Origin: Sedimentisphaerales bacterium
GTDB taxonomy: Bacteria > Planctomycetota > Phycisphaerae > Sedimentisphaerales > Anaerobacaceae
Direction: 5' to 3'
Assembly: GCA_963708075.1 (NCBI GenBank)
Contig: OY970194.1
Coordinates: 1,280,001 to 1,344,000, forward strand
Length of the DNA: 64,000 nucleotides
Of the stretch, positions 1,546 to 61,886 are shown in pieces. How positions within the stretch are numbered: the first letter of the stretch is position 1; the number at the start of each line of letters is the position of its first letter. The position numbers and the translations under genes were made by a program. A model generated the notes under the pieces. That model searched no databases and had not been told where the DNA came from. It saw only the letters and a program-made list of their open reading frames with translations.

Positions 1546-1880
1546 GCGGAGATCGGAATCCGCCACCGAAGGCCGGCCGCAGCCTTTTGTCACTACTTGA
1601 CAAAAGTCATGGAACATTTTGCCTGCATGGAACGTCTTTAATACATGGTGAGATGACCATGTCTCATTGGGCGCAGCGACGCCCGGGCCGGCCCGGCGGC
1701 CACGGTCAATCGTATATCACGAATCGTTAATCGTAGATGTCCTGAGGGAACGTGAAATCCCAGCCGGCCGGCGGCATAGGTTCGATGCCCACTGCTGTCA
1801 AGCAAGGCCAGTCGCCGATATCCCGGAAAGTCTATAGGCAAGCTTCGCTTGACGATGCCGCCCCGTGGGGGGCAGCTATT

Positions 1881-2463
1881 GCGCCAAACAAAGCCAATTG
1901 GAGCAGCCTGGGTCCGTTTGTAGTGTGCCCGTAAGGGCATCAAGGGAAGAAACGCCTTACGGCGTCACTACGAACGAGGATGTGAAACAAAGCCAATTCG
2001 TGATGGAGGAAGGTGGGCCCTTGGGATTGCGGATTGCGGTTGAAGGACGGAAGACTGTCTCGTCGGGCTACGCAATGACAGCACAGGCGAATATGCGAAA
2101 CAAAGCCAAATTCGGGAGATATGGGGTATCTGGGGAAGAATCGGTATCGTGTCTGGCACGGGGCGGAATGTGCGAAACAAAGCCAATATGGCCTTGCCGA
2201 GCGGGCTACAGGCGGTGTGCAAAACAAAGCCAATTTGGGGCCGGGGGCCCTTGGATTGCGGATTTCGGAATGCGGATTGAAGACGAGGACCGCGGTTGCA
2301 GTGATGCCCTCGTGCGGCGTGCGGAACAAAGCCAATCCGGGGGAAGGAGTATCGAGTCTGAAGTGTGAAGTGTCAAATAGCACCCCCGCCCGCAGGGGTG
2401 ATCCCAGCCGAGGGCGGCTGGGCCACATGGTGGCTGACTCGACGTGCCGAACAAAGCCAATTT
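1881..2463 (+). repeat. Array of 7 (A/G)AACAAAGCCAA core repeats with variable modular spacers (not CRISPR)
   Basis: Cores start at 1886, 1985, 2098, 2175, 2222, 2324, 2449; extended consensus RTGCG-AAACAAAGCCAA-TTY. Confidence 0.9.
1920..1971. repeat. GTAG-type REP doublet inside the first array spacer
   Basis: GTAGTGTGCCC-GTAA-GGGCAT ... ACGCC-TTAC-GGCGTCACTAC; near-identical inverted copy at 53762-53812. Confidence 0.8.
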
Positions 2464-50185: not shown

Positions 50186-50731
50186 ATGCTTAAGTTCATT
50201 ACTGACAAGCAAATATATGAAGAGGTCGTCTGTGCGATGATTCCCAGGGCCAAGCGGATGCTCTGGCTGGCTACCGCTGATCTTAAGGACCTCCACGTGC
50301 ACAAGCACGGCAGAATGGTCCCTTTTCTGGAGGTTCTGTCGGACCTGGTTCGCGGCAACGTGGAAATCCGGCTGCTTCACGCCAAGGAGCCCGGACCGAT
50401 CTTCCGCAGGGATTTCGACAAGTATCCGAGCCTCGCGAAAGGGCTGGAGCGGATGCTCTGCCCTCGGGTCCACATCAAGTGCGCCGTGGTGGATGGCGAA
50501 TGTGCCTATGCCGGCAGCGCCAATCTGACGGGAGCAGGCATCGGGGCCAAGAGCGATCGCCGGCGCAATTTCGAATCAGGGATCGTAACGACCGATCCGG
50601 CTGTCATCGGCCTGATCATGGAGCAATTCGATGGAATCTGGAGGGGGTCACACTGCCGGGAATGCGACAGAAAGGAATTCTGTGATGAGCACGCAGGTAT
50701 CTTGTCCACCCGGAGAGGAGAAAACGCGTAG
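50186..50731 (+). CDS. Single-domain phospholipase D-like (HKD) protein
   Basis: HIKCAVVD..GSANLT..NFESG; C-terminal CRECDRKEFC. Confidence 0.85.
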   Translation: MLKFITDKQIYEEVVCAMIPRAKRMLWLATADLKDLHVHKHGRMVPFLEVLSDLVRGNVEIRLLHAKEPGPIFRRDFDKYPSLAKGLERMLCPRVHIKCAVVDGECAYAGSANLTGAGIGAKSDRRRNFESGIVTTDPAVIGLIMEQFDGIWRGSHCRECDRKEFCDEHAGILSTRRGENA

Positions 50732-51239
50732 TGAAGCTCAGGGCCGGGTCAAATGCTATGGCTACCTGGACATAGAGACAACGGGCCTCAGTCGTAGCTA
50801 CTGCGATCTCACGGTAGTAGGGGTGGCGGTAATGCGCGGAGCACAACAGCAGTTCATGCAGCTTTATGGCGATCAGATCAACGCCGAGGCTGTGCTGGGC
50901 CTGCTGGAGGGTGTGGATGAGTTCTATACGTACAACGGCAGCCGGTTCGATCTGCCCTTCCTCCAGCAGAGGCTGGGCCTGGACATACGCCGCAAGTACG
51001 CACATACGGACCTGATGTACAAGTGCTGGCTCAAGAACCTCAAGGGCGGCCTGAAAGTCGTCGAGGCGCGCCTGGGCATAGAGCGGCGGCTCCAGGACAT
51101 GAATGGACTCATGGCGGTTCGCCTGTGGTGGGAATATGTCAACAACAATGATATCCAGGCCCTGCGGACGCTGCTGGAGTACAATAAAGAGGACGTTGTC
51201 AACCTCCATGTTCTGCGGGAGAAACTTGGCGTGAAGTAG
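50685..51239 (+). CDS. RNase_H_2 / YprB-like DEDD exonuclease
   Basis: YLDIETTGL, TYNGSRFDLPFL, GGLKVVE, YNKEDV. Confidence 0.88.
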   Translation: MSTQVSCPPGEEKTRSEAQGRVKCYGYLDIETTGLSRSYCDLTVVGVAVMRGAQQQFMQLYGDQINAEAVLGLLEGVDEFYTYNGSRFDLPFLQQRLGLDIRRKYAHTDLMYKCWLKNLKGGLKVVEARLGIERRLQDMNGLMAVRLWWEYVNNNDIQALRTLLEYNKEDVVNLHVLREKLGVK

Positions 51240-51262: not shown

Positions 51263-52264
51263 ATGCTGAACCGGGTGCAACTCAATCGCGGAACGCACGG
51301 CCATATCCGCGTGCTGATCTATGGCGGTGGGGCGGTAGGTCTGGGCATCGCGAGCTGCCTGCTCCATGCGGGCAACGAGGTGGATATCCTCGCAAGGCCG
51401 CAGACGGTCGCCGCCCTGGAGAGGGAGGGGCTGACGCGGACGGGGATCTTCGGCGATGTCCATGCCAAGCCCGGGGCGTTTCGCTGCTACTGCTCGTTGC
51501 AGGAAGCGTGCAGCGGACCGTATGATTTCGTGCTGATTTGCACAAAATCGTTCGATTCGCCTTCCGTTGCAGAAGACCTTGGCCGACAGCGAGCGTGCAC
51601 GAATAGCACCGCGAAACTTGTGTTGTTCCAGAACGGCTGGGGCAATGCCGAGGTCTTCGCCGCCCGGTTCGACAAAGACCGCATCTTCAACGCGCGAGTC
51701 ATCACGGGGTTTCACAAGCATCAGCCCAACGAGGTGGAGATCACGGTTCACGCCGACAGCATCCACATCGGCAGCCTCTTCGGTGTGGACCCCGGCGCTG
51801 TGGAGAGTCTGTGTCATGCCATCAGCGCGGGCGGGATCCCCTGCGAGAAGACCGATGCGATCGAGAAGGACCTGTGGGCGAAGATGCTGTACAACTGCGC
51901 CCTGAATCCGCTCGGAGCAATCCTCGGCGTGCCTTATGGAGTTCTGGCCGAGCATGCGCCGACGCGACAATTGATGGACAAGATCGTCGAAGAGGTTTTC
52001 GCAGTCATGGCGGCCAGTGGTTACAGGACACACTGGCAGCAGGCCCAGGACTTCCTGAAGGTCTTCTACGAGCGATTGGTTCCCGACACCGCCGATCACA
52101 GGTCTTCCATGCTCCAGGACCTCACAGCGGGCAAGCGTACGGAGATCGACGCGTTGAACGGGGCCGTCATCCGGCTGGCGAACGAGCACGGACTCCAAAC
52201 CCCGTACAACGGCGCCGTCTATCGCCTGATCCGGTTCCTTGAGAGCCGCCCCGGCACCGAGTGA
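51263..52264 (+). CDS. panE: 2-dehydropantoate (ketopantoate) reductase
   Basis: GGGAVG, CTKSFD, FQNG, WAKMLYN, SSMLQD, TEIDALNG. Confidence 0.93.
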   Translation: MLNRVQLNRGTHGHIRVLIYGGGAVGLGIASCLLHAGNEVDILARPQTVAALEREGLTRTGIFGDVHAKPGAFRCYCSLQEACSGPYDFVLICTKSFDSPSVAEDLGRQRACTNSTAKLVLFQNGWGNAEVFAARFDKDRIFNARVITGFHKHQPNEVEITVHADSIHIGSLFGVDPGAVESLCHAISAGGIPCEKTDAIEKDLWAKMLYNCALNPLGAILGVPYGVLAEHAPTRQLMDKIVEEVFAVMAASGYRTHWQQAQDFLKVFYERLVPDTADHRSSMLQDLTAGKRTEIDALNGAVIRLANEHGLQTPYNGAVYRLIRFLESRPGTE

Positions 52265-52277
52265 GAAGGCCGACCGG

Positions 52278-53113
52278 GAATTGGCTTTGTTTTGCACAGC
52301 CGGCTCTTTGGCAGGACCGCCCGGCTTGCTGGTTCGATCTTTCCCAAATGCCCCACACGTCCCAAGTTTGGCTTTGTTCCGCATGGCGTGGCGGGCCTCC
52401 AGATTGCCCCATGCAAATTGGCTTTGTTTCACACCCCATGCCTCCCGGCCATTCGGTAGGGTGGGCTCTGCCCACCGCGGGTCCATCGGCGGGAATTGGC
52501 TTCGTTTCTGACCCGGTTCCAACGCATCACTTCTCTCGTAACCTCCTTTCAGGTCAATAGTTAGCGTCGCCACGACCGTCCATTGAATTGGCTTTGTTTG
52601 TCACAGTGGCTCTCACGTTCTTCAATCCGCATTCTGCAATCCGAAATCCGCAACCCCGGGGCTCCTGCCCCGAAATTGGCTTTGTTTGGCAGGGCCGGTC
52701 GTCGCTCCGGGCCGTCTCTGACCGCCTGTTCTCCACATATCACATGTCCCCCAAATTTGGCTTTGTTTCGCACAGTCGCCTCCTGTCGAACCGTCCCGCA
52801 TGCAATACCAATTCTCCCCCAAATATCCCATCCATCCCAGGTTTGGCTTTGTTTTGCGCAACAAGCCGCGCTCGTAGTGACGCCGTAAGGCGTTCGTGGC
52901 GAGGGCCCTTGTCTTCCTCCTATGGAGATTGGCTTTGTTTCGCATCATCGACCAATCAAGCATAACCCCTTTCTCACATAGGATTTCGGCTGATTCCGGT
53001 CCATGTGAATTGGCTTTGTTTCGCACAGCGTACTCCTTGCCTTCAATTCGCATTCCGCAATCCGAAATCCGCAATCGCAGGGCCCTTGGCCCCGAATTGG
53101 CTTTGTTTCGCAT
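52278..53113 (-). repeat. Array of 11 AAACAAAGCCAA core repeats (read TTGGCTTTGTTT on +) with modular spacers (not CRISPR)
   Basis: Cores start on + at 52281, 52368, 52418, 52496 (variant TTGGCTTCGTTT), 52588, 52676, 52757, 52843, 52929, 53010, 53097. Confidence 0.92.
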
Positions 53114-53169
53114 GACCCGGCGCCCGCTGACGCTGATGTGTGCCTGACCGGTCCCCGGCAGACCTTCGG

Positions 53170-53568
53170 GGGTGTGGTCGGAATTCGGTGGCGGCGTGTA
53201 GCTGCCGTGTGCGGACCGGGCCTCTTTCGTCCCTTACGGGACTGGCTTCTATCCTTGACCTCGGTTTCCCAGCGATGAATCGCTGGGCTATTCTCTATCG
53301 CCCTCCGGGCTTGGACGGCACCCGGACGGATCGATCACCATCCCGCAGGTGTTGCAGCTACTCTCTATCGCCCTGCGGGCGTGGACTGCGCTCCAGTCCT
53401 CTTGCGTCGGTCCATCCGCCCCACAGGGGCGATCGACAATAGCCCACCGTTTCAACGGTGGGTACCGATAGCCAATCCTATCCCAGAGCCCCGCAGGGGC
53501 GAAAGAAGACTGGGGGCGCTCCTTTGTCCGGCGGAATCGGAATCCGCCACCGAATGCCGACCGCACCC
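53170..53568. repeat. Nested inverted-repeat composite element (MITE/REP-like)
   Basis: 53170-53194 is the inverse of 53544-53568 (23/25). The triple-hairpin unit 53224-53310 is the inverse of 53418-53505. Confidence 0.75.
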
Positions 53569-53761
53569 GACCTTCGGAATCTTTGATTTTTGATGTTTGA
53601 TTTTTGACTTGCCCATGGCTCATACGGGCGTGCCCACAGATCGGCGATACTTGGTCGTAGGACCATATACTAGAGACGCTCGCCGAGCCGGATTGTTCCA
53701 GGAATTTCTGTTGAATAGTGAAATACTTCAGACCTTTTTGCGGTCCTGACCCCGTCTGTTT

Positions 53762-53812
53762 GTAGTGACGCCGCAAGGCGTCTCCTGGATGATGCCCTTG
53801 CGGGCACACTAC
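53762..53812. repeat. GTAG-type REP doublet
   Basis: GTAGTGACGCC-GCAA-GGCGT ... ATGCCC-TTGC-GGGCACACTAC; homologous to 1920-1971. Confidence 0.8.
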
Positions 53813-54182
53813 AAGCGCACCGGCCAAGCCTGTCTCCTGTCCTCCGCCAGAATCCATCTGCCACGTCGGGCAACCTGCCGGTGGATGAGTTTTGCGCGTT
53901 GGGGTCACCAGCATGATAGATCGCTCGCGCAGGCGCCAAGCAACGCCTGGAACAGGGCTCCAGCCCGAGCCATGCTGGAGGCCAAAAGCGGCAAACTCCC
54001 GTCGCGAAGCGACGGAACCGACAGGCCCGCCTCATGACTCTGGGCACAGGCAATCCGCCCGGCCTCGCCCGGACCAGGTCCTGCTCACCTGTCACGACTC
54101 GCTAATCTCTTGTCACGCCGGGACCTCCTGCCTTTCTATCCTGGGGCCTGTCCGGAGAGGGGGAGAAGTGGTCCGGGCGCTC

Positions 54183-54204
54183 GTAGGGTGGGTCCTTGAC
54201 CCAC
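54183..54204 (+). repeat. GTAG-type REP hairpin
   Basis: GTAG-GGTGGGTC-CTT-GACCCAC; similar to GTAG-GGTGGGC-TCT-GCCCACC at 52456-52476. Confidence 0.65.
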
Positions 54205-54459
54205 GCGGTTATCTTCCTGGAATCCTCGCCCGCCCGCTTGACCCGCCCGGCCGGACAAGCTACAATAGCGGATGACAGTTGGAGCGAATCGCATGGTGGC
54301 AGTGCACGAGACGGACAGAATTAGGAACTTGCCCGGTATGCGTGGGGCAGCGCCCGGTCCATGCTGACGGGCGGGATGCGACGAAATAAGCCGTCCCCCA
54401 GAGTCCGTGAACCAAAAAAGTACCGTACCCGTTTAATTCCCCGGAACTTCCCGAGATAG

Positions 54460-55128
54460 TCACAGCCTGCTCCTGTCCTTTTCTGCTTGCAGGGCGTTCT
54501 CGATCTTTGATAGCTCTTGGTGTGAGTACTCTACCCTGTGGTCGATCTTACCGTTGTCCCCCTGCAACATGTGTCCGATGGTAACAGGCCCAACAGTCCA
54601 CTCGGAATACCATGTGCCGACACCCATGGCTATCCCTGTGCCCCATCGCTCTGGATCTTCGCGATAGGAAGTGGACTGCCAGATTCTCTTGGACTCCACC
54701 GGTTCACCATACTTCTCTCTGAGTTTTGCCTCAATGACTTCAAACTCGGTACAATACCAATTCGCATTTGAATGCTGTGTCAGAAATGAATAGCGCCCTC
54801 GAACGAATGTGTCAGATGCGAAAAGGTAAATGCAGCCTACCTCCAGACCGCCAATGCTGTCGTGAAACCCCATTCCCTTCTCGTTCTCATACATTGGCTC
54901 ACGTGCCTCGGCCTCTTTGATTCTTGCCCTACTGGCACCCCAGGGCACACCCCGGAAAAGGATGGTGTTCGGCTCAGCAACCGCCTTGGCTGCCCAAGTT
55001 CCATCGGTGTAGAGGATAACCCTCATCCCTGAAAATGTGATTGCCTCCTCTCGAACCGTCTTCTCTGTGTCAGCGACGGTGACCATCGTGAGCGACAAGA
55101 CACACAGGCAAATGGCTACGCGAGTCAT
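54460..55128 (-). CDS. Hypothetical secreted protein
   Basis: Signal peptide; VILYTDGTW, FRGVPWG, LREKYGEP; AT-richer codon usage. Confidence 0.7.
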   Translation of the reverse strand: MTRVAICLCVLSLTMVTVADTEKTVREEAITFSGMRVILYTDGTWAAKAVAEPNTILFRGVPWGASRARIKEAEAREPMYENEKGMGFHDSIGGLEVGCIYLFASDTFVRGRYSFLTQHSNANWYCTEFEVIEAKLREKYGEPVESKRIWQSTSYREDPERWGTGIAMGVGTWYSEWTVGPVTIGHMLQGDNGKIDHRVEYSHQELSKIENALQAEKDRSRL

Positions 55129-55191
55129 GCATTCTGCTCCTTCCCTCGTCATTTCGTATTTCCCAGCGGGCACGATGCAGAAGGGCACCCG

Positions 55192-56115
55192 CTACTTTGC
55201 GTAGAACGGCTCTATTTCAGGTGGTTGGTATGTAGCGTACTCAACTCCGTCCGCTACGGTCATAAGCCCTCTCAGGCTTTCGCGGGCACCCTCTACCTCG
55301 TGGAGTTTCGGCATATGAAGGTCGAATGGCATCTGTGGGGAGATGCCAATAACCTGAGTCAACATTGCCCGAATAAACGCGCTGTCATGGTCAGGACACA
55401 CTATGGCCGACTCGCCAGCGGCTCGGGCGAAGTAGTAATTGAGGACATGAGCCTCACCCCTTTCCAATTGCATGGCTGTATGCGAAGGATTGCCGGGCGT
55501 TATGTCCTCATAAGGATTCCAGTCATCTGGCATAGAGCAGGCGACGAAGCAGCACCGAGGACTGAGCGGGTAGTAGAGGACTGACTTAGGCGATATTAGA
55601 AAACCGGTCACGTATACGGGATTATCTGTTCTGATGAAGAAGTCATCAGGGTGCGCAACCAAGATGGTCCAGTCTCTTCCAGCAACCTCGCGAAGGTCCA
55701 GGCACTCCTCGCAGCCGACACGATCATGCGATGGTTGCTCCCTTACACCTGTGAGTTGCTTTGCAGTCTCCTCGTAGCGCATGAACGTTGGCGTACGCAC
55801 AAACTGGGAACGAAGGAACTGCGACCACTTAAGACGCGATTGTGCATCTAGTGACCGCCCGCGGAGCAGTGCGTCATAGATGAGCGATGCAGGGGTCTCC
55901 AACTCGTGGTGGAGCGCATATTCGACACGATCCGTGTACAGTCTGCGCAGGCGACCCCACTGCCTCCACCCGTTCGCGGTCTGACTCACTCTCCCCTTGT
56001 GATAGTCACGATAATAACAGACATAGTGTTTGTTCGCCGCCCAGTGCTCGTTCGCAAACGCAGGAGAGAAATGGTTGTTATTAACTCGAGGCCACCGCGA
56101 GTTGCACGCACACAT
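55192..56115 (-). CDS. DUF4238-like protein
   Basis: N-terminal NNHFSP, QFVRTP, FIRTDNPV, YYPLSP; start uncertain. Confidence 0.6.
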   Translation of the reverse strand: MCACNSRWPRVNNNHFSPAFANEHWAANKHYVCYYRDYHKGRVSQTANGWRQWGRLRRLYTDRVEYALHHELETPASLIYDALLRGRSLDAQSRLKWSQFLRSQFVRTPTFMRYEETAKQLTGVREQPSHDRVGCEECLDLREVAGRDWTILVAHPDDFFIRTDNPVYVTGFLISPKSVLYYPLSPRCCFVACSMPDDWNPYEDITPGNPSHTAMQLERGEAHVLNYYFARAAGESAIVCPDHDSAFIRAMLTQVIGISPQMPFDLHMPKLHEVEGARESLRGLMTVADGVEYATYQPPEIEPFYAK

Positions 56116-56392
56116 TTCTGTTCTTCTCCCAACAGTTACTTGAATTGGGGACAACCGCCGAGTGTCGCCTTGCTCTGTCCTGTTTTACCCGACACTTGGA
56201 CTGGCACAACCATCCAACTCATCTTGACCTCAGCGGGTGCGCCCAACGTAGCGGAACCGCCAACCACTTCGTCGCCGCTTCATCAAGTATCACGAAATGG
56301 GTCGAGGGAGGCAAGAGAAAACGCAGGGCAGCCCGGCGTGGAAATTCGAAATTCCAGGCCGGGGAGGAAGGAGGGGCGGATCTGGCGGATCT

Positions 56393-56437
56393 GGGGACAC
56401 AATACTTAATTCTCCACGAAGTAAGTAATGTGTCCTC
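56393..56437. repeat. Inverted repeat with GGGGACAC end
   Basis: GGGGACACAATACTTA ... TAAGTAATGTGTCCTC (14/16). Confidence 0.65.
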
Positions 56438-56552
56438 GGAATCCCTTTTGAGGCCGGGGCACGCGTGGTAGAATAGTGCATGCGGTACGGACGACCCAAT
56501 GCAATACGCCAACGGAGTGCGGAGAAGAAACACGGTTTCGGAGGACAGAGAG

Positions 56553-57324
56553 ATGAAAGCAATTTATTGGCAGGCCTTTATTCCGCTTATGGCCATTCTG
56601 GCTGTCGCCCCAATTGCTCAGGGCAAGCTGTCGCGCATTCGAGACCCTTGCTGGCACGTTCGAAGTCGGTGGCAGCGTGTATATCGACGACATTTGGGCA
56701 GCCGAATACCCGGAGTTGAATCTGCCATACTCCGACGGTTTTCACGTGGTCGATAGTCAACCGGTATCTGGCTCAGCTCAATACGTATTGCCCGGAACCG
56801 TGGTTCCCTTGGAGGGCGTCTTCTGTGAGGCGAGCTATGAGAGAATCGCCACCATTTATGAGCATGGAGTAATGGTGTTCAGCGACGAGGGTTCTGGGGG
56901 CGTGGCAATTAGCGATTATCTCTTTCGACCACGGCATTCCTCTGTCTATGAAGTGACCTTCAGCGGCTTCTTGACCCCAGTGGGAATGCACATACCGCAC
57001 GATTGGTTCGAATTGTATCTGACCGATACAACTACCGGCGAGGCTCTCATCGATGTCCGTGGGCCGTTCCACGGGCCATGGGCCGAACTATTCAGTTACT
57101 CTTGGGATACAGAGCACGAAGAGACGTTCAAGTTCCGTTTCTTCGATTCACACACGTATCGCCTGAAGATGCTGATTCAACCCTTCTCTACTTTGTGGGA
57201 CAATCCCAGCATAGGCGGTGAAATGAACGTATCAATGAAGCCAATTCCTGCTCCTGGCGCGGCCCTACTTGGTACTCTCGGTGTCAGTCTCGTTGCATGG
57301 CTGCGCAAGCGTCACAGCTTATAG
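56553..57324 (+). CDS. PEP-CTERM-like (IPAP variant) surface protein, frameshifted at ~56620-56640
   Basis: GGAGG RBS and signal peptide MKAIYWQAFIPLMAILAVAPIAQ in one frame; body and IPAPGAALLGTLGVSLVAWLRKR sorting signal in ORF 56614..57324. Confidence 0.8.
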
Positions 57325-57540
57325 AAGACATCTTACCAGCGAGACCTCAGTACAGGACCGCCGCCGGGATGGCAGTGCTGTCTCGTCTGTGAAGGGAAGA
57401 AAAGAAGGGGTCAAGAAGCTTTGGATTTAGGTGTCGCCAGGAGCTGGCACAGCTTTGGAGAGGATTCGGGGTCAACTCTCGGCGCTTGACGGTCGGCACG
57501 GACTGTCCGAGGTCGGGGTGGGAAGCCGGTCCATAATTGA

Positions 57541-57674
57541 TGATGGATGATTGTTGATTGATGATTGGGAGGAAGAAAGAGGGTATCGCGCAAAGACGCA
57601 GAGAGCGCCAAGAAACGACGAAACGCAGGAGCCTTCTTGAACGGTTTCCTTGGCGTGCTTGGCGTCTTGGTGCG
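57541..57674. repeat. Heptamer tract plus 9-mer-based inverted repeat
   Basis: TGATGGA TGATTGT TGATTGA TGATTGG; then TCGCGCAAAGACGCAGAGAGCGCCAAG ... CTTGGCGTGCTTGGCGTCTTGGTGCGA. Confidence 0.7.
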
Positions 57675-57712
57675 AGGTAATCACGGTTCCGGCTGGAAGC
57701 CGGGCTGGGCAG

Positions 57713-57952
57713 TCATGGTCTATGCGCTCGGGTCCGACGTTGGCTGTCAGAGGACAAGAGCTTCTTGCGAGTTTTCGGGCCGACCTTTTCGGGCACGACG
57801 GTCTCGGCACACAACGGAGCGAGCAGAGGGTCGCGGAGGACCTCCTCGTGGGTCCTTTGCCGCTTTTGTGCCCAGGTCAAGGCCGCATCTTCTTCATCGA
57901 TCTGTGTTCGCCGCTGGCGCATCCATGCCACGGCGTCAAATCTCTTCTTCAT
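57713..57952 (-). CDS. Small protein, putative antitoxin partner of the PIN gene
   Basis: MKKRFDAVAWMRQRR...; overlaps the PIN gene end by 17 nt. Confidence 0.6.
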   Translation of the reverse strand: MKKRFDAVAWMRQRRTQIDEEDAALTWAQKRQRTHEEVLRDPLLAPLCAETVVPEKVGPKTRKKLLSSDSQRRTRAHRP

Positions 57953-58406
57953 TGAGCAGCATCTCCTTTGGAGAGCGGATTTCTATCGGCCGATAGCCCT
58001 TCTCCATGCTTACGGCATTGAACAACCGTATTCTACCAAGATTGACGATGTGTTTGAAGTTCCAACTCACCAGGACATCACACTCGCTCACCACGGCCAG
58101 AGCTACGTGCAGGCAATCCGCACGGCTTCCGGGCCCGACGATCCGGTGTTCCAGATAGGCTTCTGCCAAGGCGTAGGCTTCGTCGTTATCCGCCAGGAGG
58201 ATCCGGTGCTCTTGCGGTACTTCCGGCGGTCGTCTACGGACCCGTTCGGGGGCACCCGCCAATTCGCGGAGCGTGTGTTCGGACAGAACCATCACATATC
58301 GGCCTTCGATGAAAAGCCGCCACAAGGTCAGACTGTCTTCGGCAAACTCGACATCGTCACAACCGCCGACGACAGAGGCATCGACATAGACCAGCATCTT
58401 CTTCAT
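57936..58406 (-). CDS. PIN domain protein (VapC-like toxin)
   Basis: C-terminal part of track ORF 57936..59216, from ATG 58406: VYVDASV, RELAGAP, DCLHVA, SWNFKHIVN. Confidence 0.85.
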   Translation of the reverse strand: MKKMLVYVDASVVGGCDDVEFAEDSLTLWRLFIEGRYVMVLSEHTLRELAGAPERVRRRPPEVPQEHRILLADNDEAYALAEAYLEHRIVGPGSRADCLHVALAVVSECDVLVSWNFKHIVNLGRIRLFNAVSMEKGYRPIEIRSPKEMLLNEEEI

Positions 58407-58533
58407 CTGCCTGCTCACAGTCCATACTGTACGCCACCTTGGAGCGGTCTGCAAGAGTCTGCCACTGTGTTTCGGATTTCCTGCTTTGTGCTTTCTTGCT
58501 GGTGTGTCCTGTGTACTGCGGCGTGGGATGGCG

Positions 58534-58539
58534 TATAAT
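58534..58539 (+). promoter_or_regulatory. Candidate sigma70 -10 box for mutS2
   Basis: Perfect TATAAT about 85 nt upstream of the start codon. Confidence 0.4.
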
Positions 58540-58622
58540 GGCGCCGGAAGTATGGTTGTGGAACAGGTTGATATACGCGGCGTGCGGGGCGGCTTGGCCC
58601 GGCGGCTGCGGGATCGGGGCCG

Positions 58623-60722
58623 ATGGCAGGCAGAAGAATAGACGAACATACGCTGAGAGTGCTCGAATTCGAGGATGTGAAGAACCTTCTGGCGTCGTTT
58701 GCGGCCAGTGATTTGGGCCGGGACGCGGCAAGGGCGCTGTATCCGTCGGTCGATCTGCGATGGGCGAAGGCGCGCGTCGCGGAGACGGCCGAGTTGGGGG
58801 CGGTGCTGGAGCGTGGCGAACGGGTGCCGATGGCCGGCCTGCGCGATATCCGGCCGACGCTCAAGGAGTTCGGCAAGAAGCAAACGGTGCTTGAGCCTGC
58901 CCAGTTGCTTGAGATTTCCGACACGCTGGCGGCCAGCGGCAGGCTGAGGCTGTTCCTCACGAATCTGGAGCCATCGCAGAGCAGCCACCTGCACGCTATG
59001 GGCGAGAAACTCGGCGATTTTCAGGCCATCGTGGATGAGGTCAGCCGGTGCATCGGCGGCGATAAGCGCGTGCGCGACGACGCTTCGGATAAGCTCAAGG
59101 AGATCCGCCGCAAGATGGCGGAGTTGAGCGAAGCCATCCACCATCGGTTTTTGAGTATTGTCTCTTCGCCTTCGCTGCGTCGGGCGGTCGAGAACGACAA
59201 TTTCCTGCTGCGTCACGGCCGGCCCGTCGTCGCGCTAAAAGCCAATTACCGCACCGCTTTGCGAGGCACGGTTCTGGATCGTTCGAACACCGGGGCCACC
59301 CTGTACGTCGAGCCGGACGAGCTGGTCGAGTTGAGCAACGAGATGGAGGACGCGGTCTTCGAGGAGAAGAAGGAGATCGGCCGCATCCTGTGGCTCCTCA
59401 CGAAGATGGTCCTCGATCAGCAGGAGGCTATCCTTGACAGCGTAAAGACGCTCGCCCTGGTTGATTTGACCTATGCGAAGGCGAGATTCGGTATCGCCTA
59501 CGGTATGCACCCGCCGGACCTCAATCCCGGTGCTTCGCTGCAGCTTCGCCAGGCCCGGCATCCTCTGCTGCTGCATGTGGCAAGCCGGCAAAAGGGGTGC
59601 GAGGTGCGCGAGCTGACCGATGAGATCGTGCCCATCGACGCCCGTCTGGGCGAGGACTTCGACCTGCTCCTGATCACCGGGCCCAACACCGGCGGCAAGA
59701 CCGTGGTTCTCAAGACCATCGGCCTGCTGACCGTCATGGCCCAGAGCGGCATGCACATCCCGGCCCTCGCGGGATCGCAGGTCTCCGTCTTTCGGCAGGT
59801 CTATGCGGATATCGGCGACGAGCAGAGCATCGAGCAGAGCCTGAGCACGTTCTCCGCCCACATGCGACAAGTCGTCAAGATTCTGAACGAGACGAACGAC
59901 GGCACGCTGGTCCTGCTCGACGAGCTTGGTGCGGGGACCGACCCAATCGAGGGGGCTGTATTGGCCACGGCTGTGCTGGACAAGCTGCTCGAAAAAGGCG
60001 CGAAGGTCGTGGTGACCACCCATCTGGGGCAACTCAAGTCCTACGCCTACAGCACGCCGCGGGCACAGAACGCCTCGGTGCAGTTCGATAGCGAAACCCT
60101 GGAGCCCACGTTTCGATTGATGATCGGTACGCCGGGCAGCAGCAATGCGCTGGTCATCGCCAAACGCCTGGGCATGCCCAACTCCGTCATCGTCGAGGCG
60201 AGCTCCTCGCTGGAAAAGGAATCCGACGGTACCTCTGATCTGATCAACCAGATTCAGGCGACCCGCGAAGATTCCGAGCGCAAACGCTCCGAGGCCCAGT
60301 CGATGCTCGACGAGGCCAAGGCAGTGCGCTCCGAGGCCGCCGAGAGACTGCAGCAAGTGGAAGAGGAAGGCCGGCGGCTTAAGGAGCAGGCAGACCAGGA
60401 GATCGACGATTCCATGCGGGCGGTTCGCCGCGTGATCGATGAGTTCGCCGCCGAGATGCAAAACGCCCCGAGCCTGTGGCAGCAGAAGGCCCAGGGGTTG
60501 GTCGAGAAGACAGCCGAACTTGCGGCCGGGACGCCCCTGGCGACGCGCCATGCAGCCTTCATCGAGACCCTGCACAGGGGCGACAGCGTCTACGTGATTC
60601 CCTTCCGGCGCGAAGGCATCGTGGAACGCGTGCGCAAGAAGCGGGGGACAATCGAGGTCTTCGTCGACAGCAAGCAGGTCGAGGTACCCTTCGCAGAAGT
60701 CTCAAAACCGCAGCAGGCGTAA
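58623..60722 (+). CDS. mutS2: MutS2 family ATPase lacking the C-terminal Smr domain
   Basis: TLRVLEF, SNTGATLYVEP, ARHPLL, TGPNTGGKT, QSLSTFS, LLDELGAGTDP, coiled coil, KOW-like end. Confidence 0.9.
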   Translation: MAGRRIDEHTLRVLEFEDVKNLLASFAASDLGRDAARALYPSVDLRWAKARVAETAELGAVLERGERVPMAGLRDIRPTLKEFGKKQTVLEPAQLLEISDTLAASGRLRLFLTNLEPSQSSHLHAMGEKLGDFQAIVDEVSRCIGGDKRVRDDASDKLKEIRRKMAELSEAIHHRFLSIVSSPSLRRAVENDNFLLRHGRPVVALKANYRTALRGTVLDRSNTGATLYVEPDELVELSNEMEDAVFEEKKEIGRILWLLTKMVLDQQEAILDSVKTLALVDLTYAKARFGIAYGMHPPDLNPGASLQLRQARHPLLLHVASRQKGCEVRELTDEIVPIDARLGEDFDLLLITGPNTGGKTVVLKTIGLLTVMAQSGMHIPALAGSQVSVFRQVYADIGDEQSIEQSLSTFSAHMRQVVKILNETNDGTLVLLDELGAGTDPIEGAVLATAVLDKLLEKGAKVVVTTHLGQLKSYAYSTPRAQNASVQFDSETLEPTFRLMIGTPGSSNALVIAKRLGMPNSVIVEASSSLEKESDGTSDLINQIQATREDSERKRSEAQSMLDEAKAVRSEAAERLQQVEEEGRRLKEQADQEIDDSMRAVRRVIDEFAAEMQNAPSLWQQKAQGLVEKTAELAAGTPLATRHAAFIETLHRGDSVYVIPFRREGIVERVRKKRGTIEVFVDSKQVEVPFAEVSKPQQA

Positions 60723-60728
60723 CGAACG

Positions 60729-61886
60729 TCACACCATCGCTTTGCTGAGTATTTCAAGGAGTTCGTCGTCGCGCAGCTCGATGGGATTGCCCTTCATGCT
60801 ACTGGCCTTCTTTGCCTGGGCGACGACGGCAGGCAGGTCTTCCCTTCGCAAGCCGTACTCGCTCAATCCGGGCAGGCCGAACCCAGCGCATAACTCCTGA
60901 ATCCAGGAGACAGCGTCGGACGCCTGGGCGGCGGGTTTGCCGGTCAGGATTCTCGCGGCCTCATCGAAGCGGGCCCGGGCCGGTGAGTCGAAGGATCGGG
61001 ACTGCAAGGCCCATACGTTCGCCTCAATGACGTAGGGCAGAAGCTTGCCGCAGATAACGCCGTGGGGCGCATTTGTCATGCCTCCCAGTGGGCCTGCAAA
61101 CCCGTGCACGGCGCCGAGGGCAGCGTTGGCCAGTGCAAGACCGCTGAAGAGACTGGCTATTGCCATATCCTCGCGCGCCTGGGCATCGTTCCCATCCCGG
61201 AACGCACGTTGCAGGGACCGGCCGATCCGTTGCAGGCCCTCGCGGCAGACGCCGTCTGTCATCGGATTGGCTTTGTTTGAAACGAATGGCTCGATGAGTT
61301 GAGTGAGGGCATCCAAGCCGGTGCTGGCGGTCAGCTTCGGCGGCATGGAATGGGTCAGCAGCGGATCGACCAGGGCCACCCGGGGCAGCAGAAGGGGGCT
61401 TCGCATGCTGACTTTTACCCGGTGCTCGGGGACAAGGAGGACCGCGTTGCGCGTGACCTCGGCCCCCGTTCCCGCCGTCGTCGGCACAGCGATGTACGGG
61501 ACCGGCTCGCCCTGCAGAGGTTTACCCTTGCCGACGACCTCAAGATAATCGAGCAGTTCCCCCTCGTTTTTCAGCATGGCAGCAACGACCTTGCCTGTAT
61601 CGATGACGCTGCCGCCGCCGATGGCGATCACGACCTGGCTCTGGGCCCATCGCGCCGACACGACAGCCGCCTGGGCCATCTCCGTCGTGGGTTCCCCGAC
61701 GACATGGAAGACTTCGGGCACGACCGCCACGCAAGCAAGTTGATCGAGGATTCGACCGAAGCGGTGCGGATCGCTCCCCAGCATGAGGAACACCCGGTTG
61801 CCAAACGCGACGGCTATCTCGGCCAACTGGTCTGCGGCACCCGGGCCAAAGATGATCCTGTCGGCAGTAGAGAATTCGAATCTCAT
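60729..61886 (-). CDS. Iron-containing alcohol dehydrogenase
   Basis: GGGSVIDTGK, PTTAGTGAEVT, LGAVHG, PHG. Confidence 0.93.
   Translation of the reverse strand: MRFEFSTADRIIFGPGAADQLAEIAVAFGNRVFLMLGSDPHRFGRILDQLACVAVVPEVFHVVGEPTTEMAQAAVVSARWAQSQVVIAIGGGSVIDTGKVVAAMLKNEGELLDYLEVVGKGKPLQGEPVPYIAVPTTAGTGAEVTRNAVLLVPEHRVKVSMRSPLLLPRVALVDPLLTHSMPPKLTASTGLDALTQLIEPFVSNKANPMTDGVCREGLQRIGRSLQRAFRDGNDAQAREDMAIASLFSGLALANAALGAVHGFAGPLGGMTNAPHGVICGKLLPYVIEANVWALQSRSFDSPARARFDEAARILTGKPAAQASDAVSWIQELCAGFGLPGLSEYGLRREDLPAVVAQAKKASSMKGNPIELRDDELLEILSKAMV

Follow-up and report, generated by a model that had tools for sequence, protein, structure and literature searches.

The array of 11 direct repeats in the window, a 64,000-nucleotide stretch of a Sedimentisphaerales bacterium genome, is, judging from the leader beside it, a gene-less derivative of a mobile-looking element built around a single gene, here called STGP. 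It is probably the right-hand part of an internally deleted selfish element whose own protein recognises the end motif, with the repeat core serving as the end or landing site of that element. The family that joins this gene to this motif is apparently undescribed, a provisional assessment based on failed membership tests and on literature searches. In the openly available full text of articles, nothing was found on the peptide motif, the core sequence, HGGxSTG or Sedimentisphaerales repeats.

On the + strand, the cores of the array start at positions 52281, 52368, 52418, 52496, 52588, 52676, 52757, 52843, 52929, 53010 and 53097, giving periods of 87, 50, 78, 92, 88, 81, 86, 86, 81 and 87 nt. 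Nine of the 11 contain the exact 12-mer TTGGCTTTGTTT, and the other two carry one change each. A preliminary description of this DNA had reported the same cores and periods, which are reproduced exactly, together with REP hairpins near 52456 and 52874 and heptamers in the spacers, which are present as claimed. These hairpins and the AATCCGC-type heptamers have from 5 to 75 matches outside arrays, and six of the ten spacers have no outside match. The description of the period as near-regular fits this array but not the genome, in which 246 periods range from 32 to 375 nt, and the preliminary account missed both the strand on which the element reads and the leader (Table 1). The leader-nearest core lies at 53097-53108, and at the far end only 14 nt separate the last core from the stop codon of panE. 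Contigs from sequencing run X1, which may be the source sample, span 52254-52497 and 52806-53002 with zero differences, so the array is not an assembly artefact.

Table 1. Features of the gene-less element and its surroundings, in window positions
Feature	Position	Strand	Remarks
Array 1, apparent second gene-less element of the same family	1584..2460	+	7 cores, 1886-2460; leader 1584-1743, E 2.1e-22
panE, ketopantoate reductase (PanE/ApbA), flanking host gene	51263..52264	+	
Islet, 6.4 kb, between panE and mutS2	52265..58622	.	Contains the element plus four unrelated ORFs
Array of 11 direct repeats	52278..53113	- (element sense)	Each repeat approximately GTGCGAAACAAAGCCAATT on the sense strand
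REP-like hairpin in spacer	52455..52478	.	5 matches outside arrays
Two-core module, 92-bp period	52496..52599	-	TAA-N-TTA quasi-palindrome 52539-52563; putatively IHF-like
REP-like repeat in spacer	52874..52893	.	Second copy at 53762
Second, degenerate quasi-palindrome copy	52963..52987	.	Within an 81-bp unit type recurring in 4 arrays
Probable decayed first STGP codons fused to first core	53109..53160	-	Assigned by eye against other gene-less heads
Unrelated 399-bp MITE inserted into the leader	53161..53577	.	25-bp inverted ends, 9-bp target duplication
Leader; homologue of the 5' region in intact STGP genes	53570..53728	-	nhmmer E 2.9e-23
mutS2, flanking host gene	58623..60722	+	

The leader ties the array to the gene. 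It contains an ECF-type promoter-like site (TGGAAC-N16-CGTC at 53700-53675), heptamer repeats and the start of a ribosome-binding region. The leader profile was built mostly from the gene-bearing copies of the host genome. Across that genome, 24 of 33 gene-less arrays have the leader on the side where the gene would lie and one of 33 has it on the far side (E ≤ 0.05, a threshold at which heptamers can give weak matches). The preliminary description had named array 1 and the present array together as the best candidate for an undescribed system in the window; by their leader matches, both appear to be gene-less copies of a single family. The short stretch between leader and array, 53109-53160, gives no match to the coding-region HMM.

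The MITE that interrupts the leader has its inverted ends at 53170-53194 and 53544-53568 and the two copies of its target duplication at 53161-53169 and 53569-53577. It belongs to a family separate from the STGP element, with 145 end matches genome-wide, 8-9-bp target duplications and lengths that cluster at about 181, 329, 399 and 468 bp, many of its members carrying Acido-Lenti-1-like hairpins. Both Rfam matches to Acido-Lenti-1 in the window copy (53268-53311 and 53417-53462) are arms of the MITE inverted repeat, so that in this setting the motif has the appearance of a mobile DNA repeat and not of an independent sRNA. A 1547-bp copy elsewhere in the host genome (G000:C1:5257106-5258652) has two ORFs that may represent a split transposase. 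The idea that the inverted ends of this MITE carry the STGP element was considered and abandoned, as one subgroup terminates in a single MITE end for which no left partner was found.

The islet that holds the element is missing from 13 of 21 relatives, in which panE and mutS2 abut. None of the 21 has cores in the window orientation within the DNA fetched after panE, and three (G013, G007 and G005) carry an intact STGP gene in the opposite orientation at the panE junction. The cargo of the islet (54460-58400) includes a 242-aa protein of no known kind, a DUF4238 protein and two further ORFs. The islet ORF at 56614-57324 presumably has a PEP-CTERM-like tail (no NCBIfam match), and we take the ORF at about 57939-58400 on the - strand to be PIN-like (no NCBIfam match). 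Upstream of panE, at 50186-51239, lie two adjacent genes, one encoding a PLD-like protein and the other an RNase H-like exonuclease.

The host genome (7.5 Mb in one contig, 60% GC) contains 248 exact and 319 near-exact cores; an order-3 Markov model predicts 0.33 exact copies, so the core is not a product of chance. Of these, 288 are grouped into 42 arrays of 2-13 units and 31 are singletons, one of which lies in the window at 61267, in the 3' region near an iron-alcohol-dehydrogenase-like ORF. Each array keeps to one strand. The full repeat measures about 20-25 nt, of which the 13-bp core is directional and non-palindromic, and spacers range from 13 to 356 nt. A coding repeat was rejected, as the core occurs in all three frames and is therefore kept as a nucleic acid, and so was a replichore-oriented motif, as both core orientations are found on both replichores.

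Conservation is concentrated in the core, which scores 0.98 against 0.79 for spacers in 127 homologous unit pairs from different arrays; cores were picked at no more than one mismatch, and a further decayed core-like match is present in only 7 of 246 units. As this array is missing from the window site in all 21 relatives, the comparison draws on paralogous arrays plus a single orthologous pair. The preliminary description had proposed selection on both core and spacing, and had named a core no better conserved than its spacers across orthologous arrays as the sign of neutral duplication. The first half of the proposal is supported in these arrays, which do not show that sign. The second is not supported in general, as periods vary widely and show no 10.5-bp helical phasing (Rayleigh p 0.15 for 179 non-redundant periods), and only a 90-92-bp module is fixed. 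A scan of ten periods gave p 0.025 at 11 and 0.002 at 9.5, values that are not counted as support. The 87-nt period is common mainly because particular units have been copied.

Spacers consist of modules that recur between arrays in varied order, and one unit type is found five times in a row. Among spacers of at least 25 nt, 113 of 225 match repeats outside arrays, compared with 61 of 225 intergenic controls, and only 17 are covered to 80% by such repeats (controls 29); spacers thus contain REP hairpins and heptamers but are not clean captures of them. In one case, the sequence immediately preceding the first core is repeated at the end of the first spacer. When units from different arrays are aligned, their similarity breaks off at the core in 135 of 204 pairs, compared with 10 of 62 for a point inside spacers. 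Core-plus-spacer units are gained, lost and reshuffled whole, with their joints at the core.

Such mosaics of short modules, with REP-like hairpins in spacers and Y1 transposases in the genome, resemble REP/BIME sequences and their RAYT transposases. A BIME-like mosaic would grow neutrally by slippage and gene conversion, its core being the site of a host protein and its association with the gene merely historical. The excess of REP and heptamer matches in spacers, the five-fold tandem unit and 13 Y1 transposase matches in the genome are consistent with this reading, as is the near confinement of dense arrays to the host genus (elsewhere in the phylum, 2 of 200 genomes have them). It is nonetheless improbable. 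Unlike REPs, cores are not palindromes, strictly share one orientation within an array and go with another gene and its leader, which the gene-less arrays still carry, and REPs are passengers in some spacers only. Core pairs occur in all 18 same-genus genomes tested, but their number varies from 2 to about 690, unlike that of a site the host needs. In three phyla, moreover, it is the same gene that the core is found behind.

Nine arrays of the host genome sit at the 3' end of this gene, the name of which comes from KSTGPRT in the start of its product (NRRNAxKSTGPRT). All nine loci have 2-9 sense-strand cores, starting 610-770 nt after the ATG. In the genus, a core lies downstream of the gene in 74 of 77 loci and upstream in one (the 77 being those of 82 non-redundant loci with at least 1.2 kb of downstream DNA). 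A sense core is also present in 58 of 80 loci of other genomes, among them 11 of 23 outside Planctomycetota (Acidobacteriota, Alphaproteobacteria and others); the strict sense core is absent from 22 of the 80, several of which are cut short or variant-bearing. The linkage of gene and core thus holds across at least three phyla. Two Acidobacteriota genomes have 114 and 125 cores together with 7 and 18 STGP gene matches, some of them shortened. Spread of the gene is patchy, as a single query finds it in 1 of 80 other Planctomycetota genomes. Inverted cores also occur in some subfamilies. In one (L211-L214, L226, L032-L044), an inverted core precedes the sense cores and encloses 130-380 nt; it lies in frame 0 in 14 of 16 cases. 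A full-length STGP relative (L104:5899-6894) is found without a strict core in a satellite-like contig, flanked by a primase-polymerase gene and a DNA methyltransferase / type III restriction gene.

The STGP protein is about 175 aa long, with a conserved part of 179 residues, and its relatives fill 23,820 clusters at 50% identity; gene calls made for this analysis come from a rough hexamer model. No Pfam family matches 148 members above chance, no NCBIfam family matches three members, and searches of PHROG and of PDB sequences gave no match. The predicted structure is confident and all-helical (pLDDT 87.5). Fold searches with it return generic coiled coils only (best Z 8.1, rmsd 6.0, 102 residues aligned), a result that includes no enzyme fold, neither assigns the protein to the ring-forming helical hairpin fold of small terminases nor sets it apart from that fold, and excludes no family. 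In the ESM Atlas, unnamed clusters score 0.95-0.97 and the nearest named ones, SEC-C clusters, 0.79, which is a lead only. The gene is absent from curated phage records, and a plasmid search gives four partial matches.

STGP paralogues are under purifying selection, with dN/dS of 0.18-0.26 in the closest pairs and a median of 0.40 over 1705 pairs. Selection is stronger in codons 2-45 (median 0.23) than in codons 46-95 (0.59). The preliminary description had called for a factor that recognises the core, and the STGP protein, as a putative binder, is a clear candidate. In 73 of 91 loci, its reading frame runs past the first core without a stop codon, compared with 39 and 36 loci for the two alternative frames, and its C-terminal tail is arbitrary read-through. 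This open frame suggests that the protein would probably bind the core in cis. It would also explain recurring 'hypothetical proteins' with KQSQ, ETKP or NKAN as read-through of the core motif.

The N-terminal part of STGP has counterparts in phages. Viral-contig proteins (L108-L159) with the same N-terminal motif, STGP..EGK..N..KHG, and a cysteine-rich segment lie directly upstream of large terminases of about 600 aa. They match no PHROG or Pfam family (two were tested in Pfam) and are probable unannotated small terminases, named TerS here by gene position only. Some TerS-position proteins match the NCBIfam HGGxSTG domain NF041373, and STGP itself does not. Small terminases of P22, SPP1 and lambda have their cognate packaging sites in or beside the small terminase gene, and the TerS of SaPI redirects the packaging of a helper phage. 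By analogy, STGP may be a small-terminase-like protein, its cores and IHF-like site a pac- or cos-like signal, and its element a hijacker that diverts a helper large terminase and spreads by transduction. The first 45 or so residues of STGP do align with TerS-position proteins (hhalign 99.4%, 48 columns), and large terminases account for 13 of the 34 scanned ORFs (of 54 listed, from 62 viral loci) downstream of the viral-contig relatives. Direct repeats with an IHF site between them also recall cosB of lambda. Several findings make packaging hijack an unlikely explanation. Residues 46-179 of STGP do not align with TerS-position proteins (probability <1%), and the C-terminal tail is arbitrary. 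The core is found in only one TerS-position phage locus, anywhere in the fetched DNA, and downstream cores are absent. Unlike phage TerS genes, the STGP gene is chromosomal and multi-copy, with no terminase or capsid genes close by and no large terminase recurring beside its chromosomal copies. Finally, transduction alone would not make tens of new sites in one genome.

The one fixed spacing among the arrays belongs to a two-core module. With a period of 90-92 nt, it places a TAA-N17-TTA quasi-palindrome 42-43 nt from the start of one core and 23-24 nt from the next; the window copy has 43 and 24 nt. Eight of the 12 listed quasi-palindrome units have this period, and the remainder measure 77-90 nt. 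Beside STGP genes, no period is commoner than 90 nt (38 of 202), and units of this length contain the palindrome; the module recurs in a genome of another class. The IHF consensus is given as WATCAAnnnnTTR (PMC10380432), and in AT-rich lineages the right half of the quasi-palindrome reads like it. An IHF-like match lies within 45 nt after 4 of 16 cores outside Planctomycetota, compared with 11 of 2534 background windows, and the host genome has three HU/IHF-family genes. The conserved module of about 90 bp thus appears to contain an IHF-like site, to which IHF may bind.

This geometry bears on whether the core works as RNA. Type III toxin-antitoxin systems, in which repeats precede the gene, use repeat RNA as antitoxin or sponge, and CsrB-type RNAs act as decoys. 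In a similar way, leader promoters might transcribe the array, the core RNA might sequester STGP, and gene-less arrays might be kept as decoys. Gene-less arrays retain promoter-like sites and are longer (median 7, maximum 13 units) than gene-bearing ones (median 6, maximum 9), and the cores lie on the sense strand with the frame open into the array. Such a sponge is still unlikely, as the array folds no better than shuffled sequence (z -0.12) and Rfam matches are confined to the MITE, with none on cores. Repeats lie downstream of the STGP gene, not upstream as in type III systems, and no Pfam or Rfam match was found that would indicate a ToxN/CptN/TenpN endoribonuclease gene. The fixed core-palindrome-core arrangement points to double-stranded DNA, and an RNA product would leave the polymorphism of sites unexplained.

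Elements occupy different sites in related genomes. Four relatives have 64 STGP loci, and the gene downstream allowed 49 of these to be placed on the host genome; the latter has no core at 46 of these sites and gene-less arrays in the same orientation at the other three. A tree of 80 STGP gene 5' ends groups copies mostly by genome rather than by site. Of 15 copies at six shared sites, one pair (L237/L255) is clearly closest to its same-site partner, and one further case is ambiguous. At one shared site, three unrelated copies end equidistant from the same host promoter; at a second, junctions lie about 40 nt apart, which shows that base-exact targeting is not the rule at every site. Neither a target duplication nor an inverted left end was seen among copies whose best pairs are 91-95% identical, too old for exact mapping of the element ends.

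Of the orthologous elements L237 and L255, from G013 and G007, one has an additional core-plus-spacer unit of exactly 96 bp at the first core. This difference, along with a leader that has a promoter and IHF-like sites, recalls a CRISPR-like or guide-RNA memory that would take up each new spacer at the core closest to the gene. Like integron and CRISPR arrays, the present ones combine a leader, direct sites between exchangeable modules, possible proximal gain and sites for a bending protein. A memory function is largely refuted and very improbable. The genome, 92.8% complete, has no cas1 (PF01867) match; spacers vary from 13 to 356 nt, recur within and between arrays, and consist of host repeats or of sequence copied from the tail of the element itself. 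No array spacer matches any of 50,697 phage records, the only phage protospacer candidates being chance matches to a heptamer outside the array. The spacer search proposed in the preliminary description yields host matches but no match in these phage records, and the naming of the array there as non-CRISPR is supported. Integrons differ as well, as STGP spacers are non-coding and of host-repeat origin and come without attC hairpin or integrase, and no IntI-type tyrosine recombinase recurs beside STGP in 162 loci.

The element works most like an insertion sequence with MITE-type non-autonomous derivatives, an analogy that fails at the transposase. It resembles that class in having one gene, many copies per genome, polymorphic sites, deleted copies that keep their ends and a gene under purifying selection. 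It differs in its end motif, which is direct, present 1-13 times and on one side, and in that a catalytic domain of the DDE, HUH, tyrosine, serine or IS110 kind was not found. Terminal inverted repeats and target duplications were not seen either, in a set of copies with no very recent members. Across the 162 loci, the surroundings of the gene show no recurring transposase, recombinase or reverse transcriptase.

Under the preferred reading of a deleted selfish element, the full element would consist of a quasi-palindrome and promoter, the STGP gene and one or more directional cores, AAAC(A/G)AA(C/G)CCAATT. STGP would bind the core through its basic N-terminal arm, shared with the phage proteins in small-terminase position, and an IHF or HU protein may bend the 90-bp module to make the core a point of strand exchange or landing. 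Incoming copies would join at resident cores, and older gene copies would be deleted back to a core. The leftover gene tails, having collected REP hairpins and heptamers, would become spacers, and ordinary slippage between cores would duplicate units. Strands may be cut by a host or helper enzyme, or by STGP itself. Two observations would also fit simpler processes, as joints at the core are expected from ordinary recombination within a shared repeat of 20-25 bp, and grouping by genome from gene conversion of old insertions.

A more far-reaching version, in which STGP with IHF itself cuts or exchanges DNA at the 13-bp core, homes into resident cores and builds the modular arrays, is tentative and rather doubtful. 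If true, it would define a new class of mobile element with a chemistry unlike DDE, HUH, tyrosine, serine and IS110 enzymes, spanning a family of more than 20,000 clusters. The element changes places between genomes though no known mobilising enzyme travels along, and its core links a very large unannotated protein family with one particular DNA motif. Use as a genetic tool is conceivable as well, given a protein so small and a landing site that is short and directional.

In the arrays of the host genome and the loci of its relatives, the last core is often followed, 20-130 nt downstream, by a host promoter. A -10-like box, a pattern chosen after viewing the data, is found within 200 nt of 14 of 42 arrays and 120 of 1000 intergenic controls. 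Heptamers in the leader and spacers resemble the TAACTGA direct repeats described just upstream of start codons (MacGregor 2015, PMC4679880), a paper on heptamers alone, in whose abstract a 13-bp core, gene or array of the STGP kind does not appear. The host genome also has other, very abundant intergenic repeats, among them several families of heptamers and REP-like families with as many as about 275 copies.
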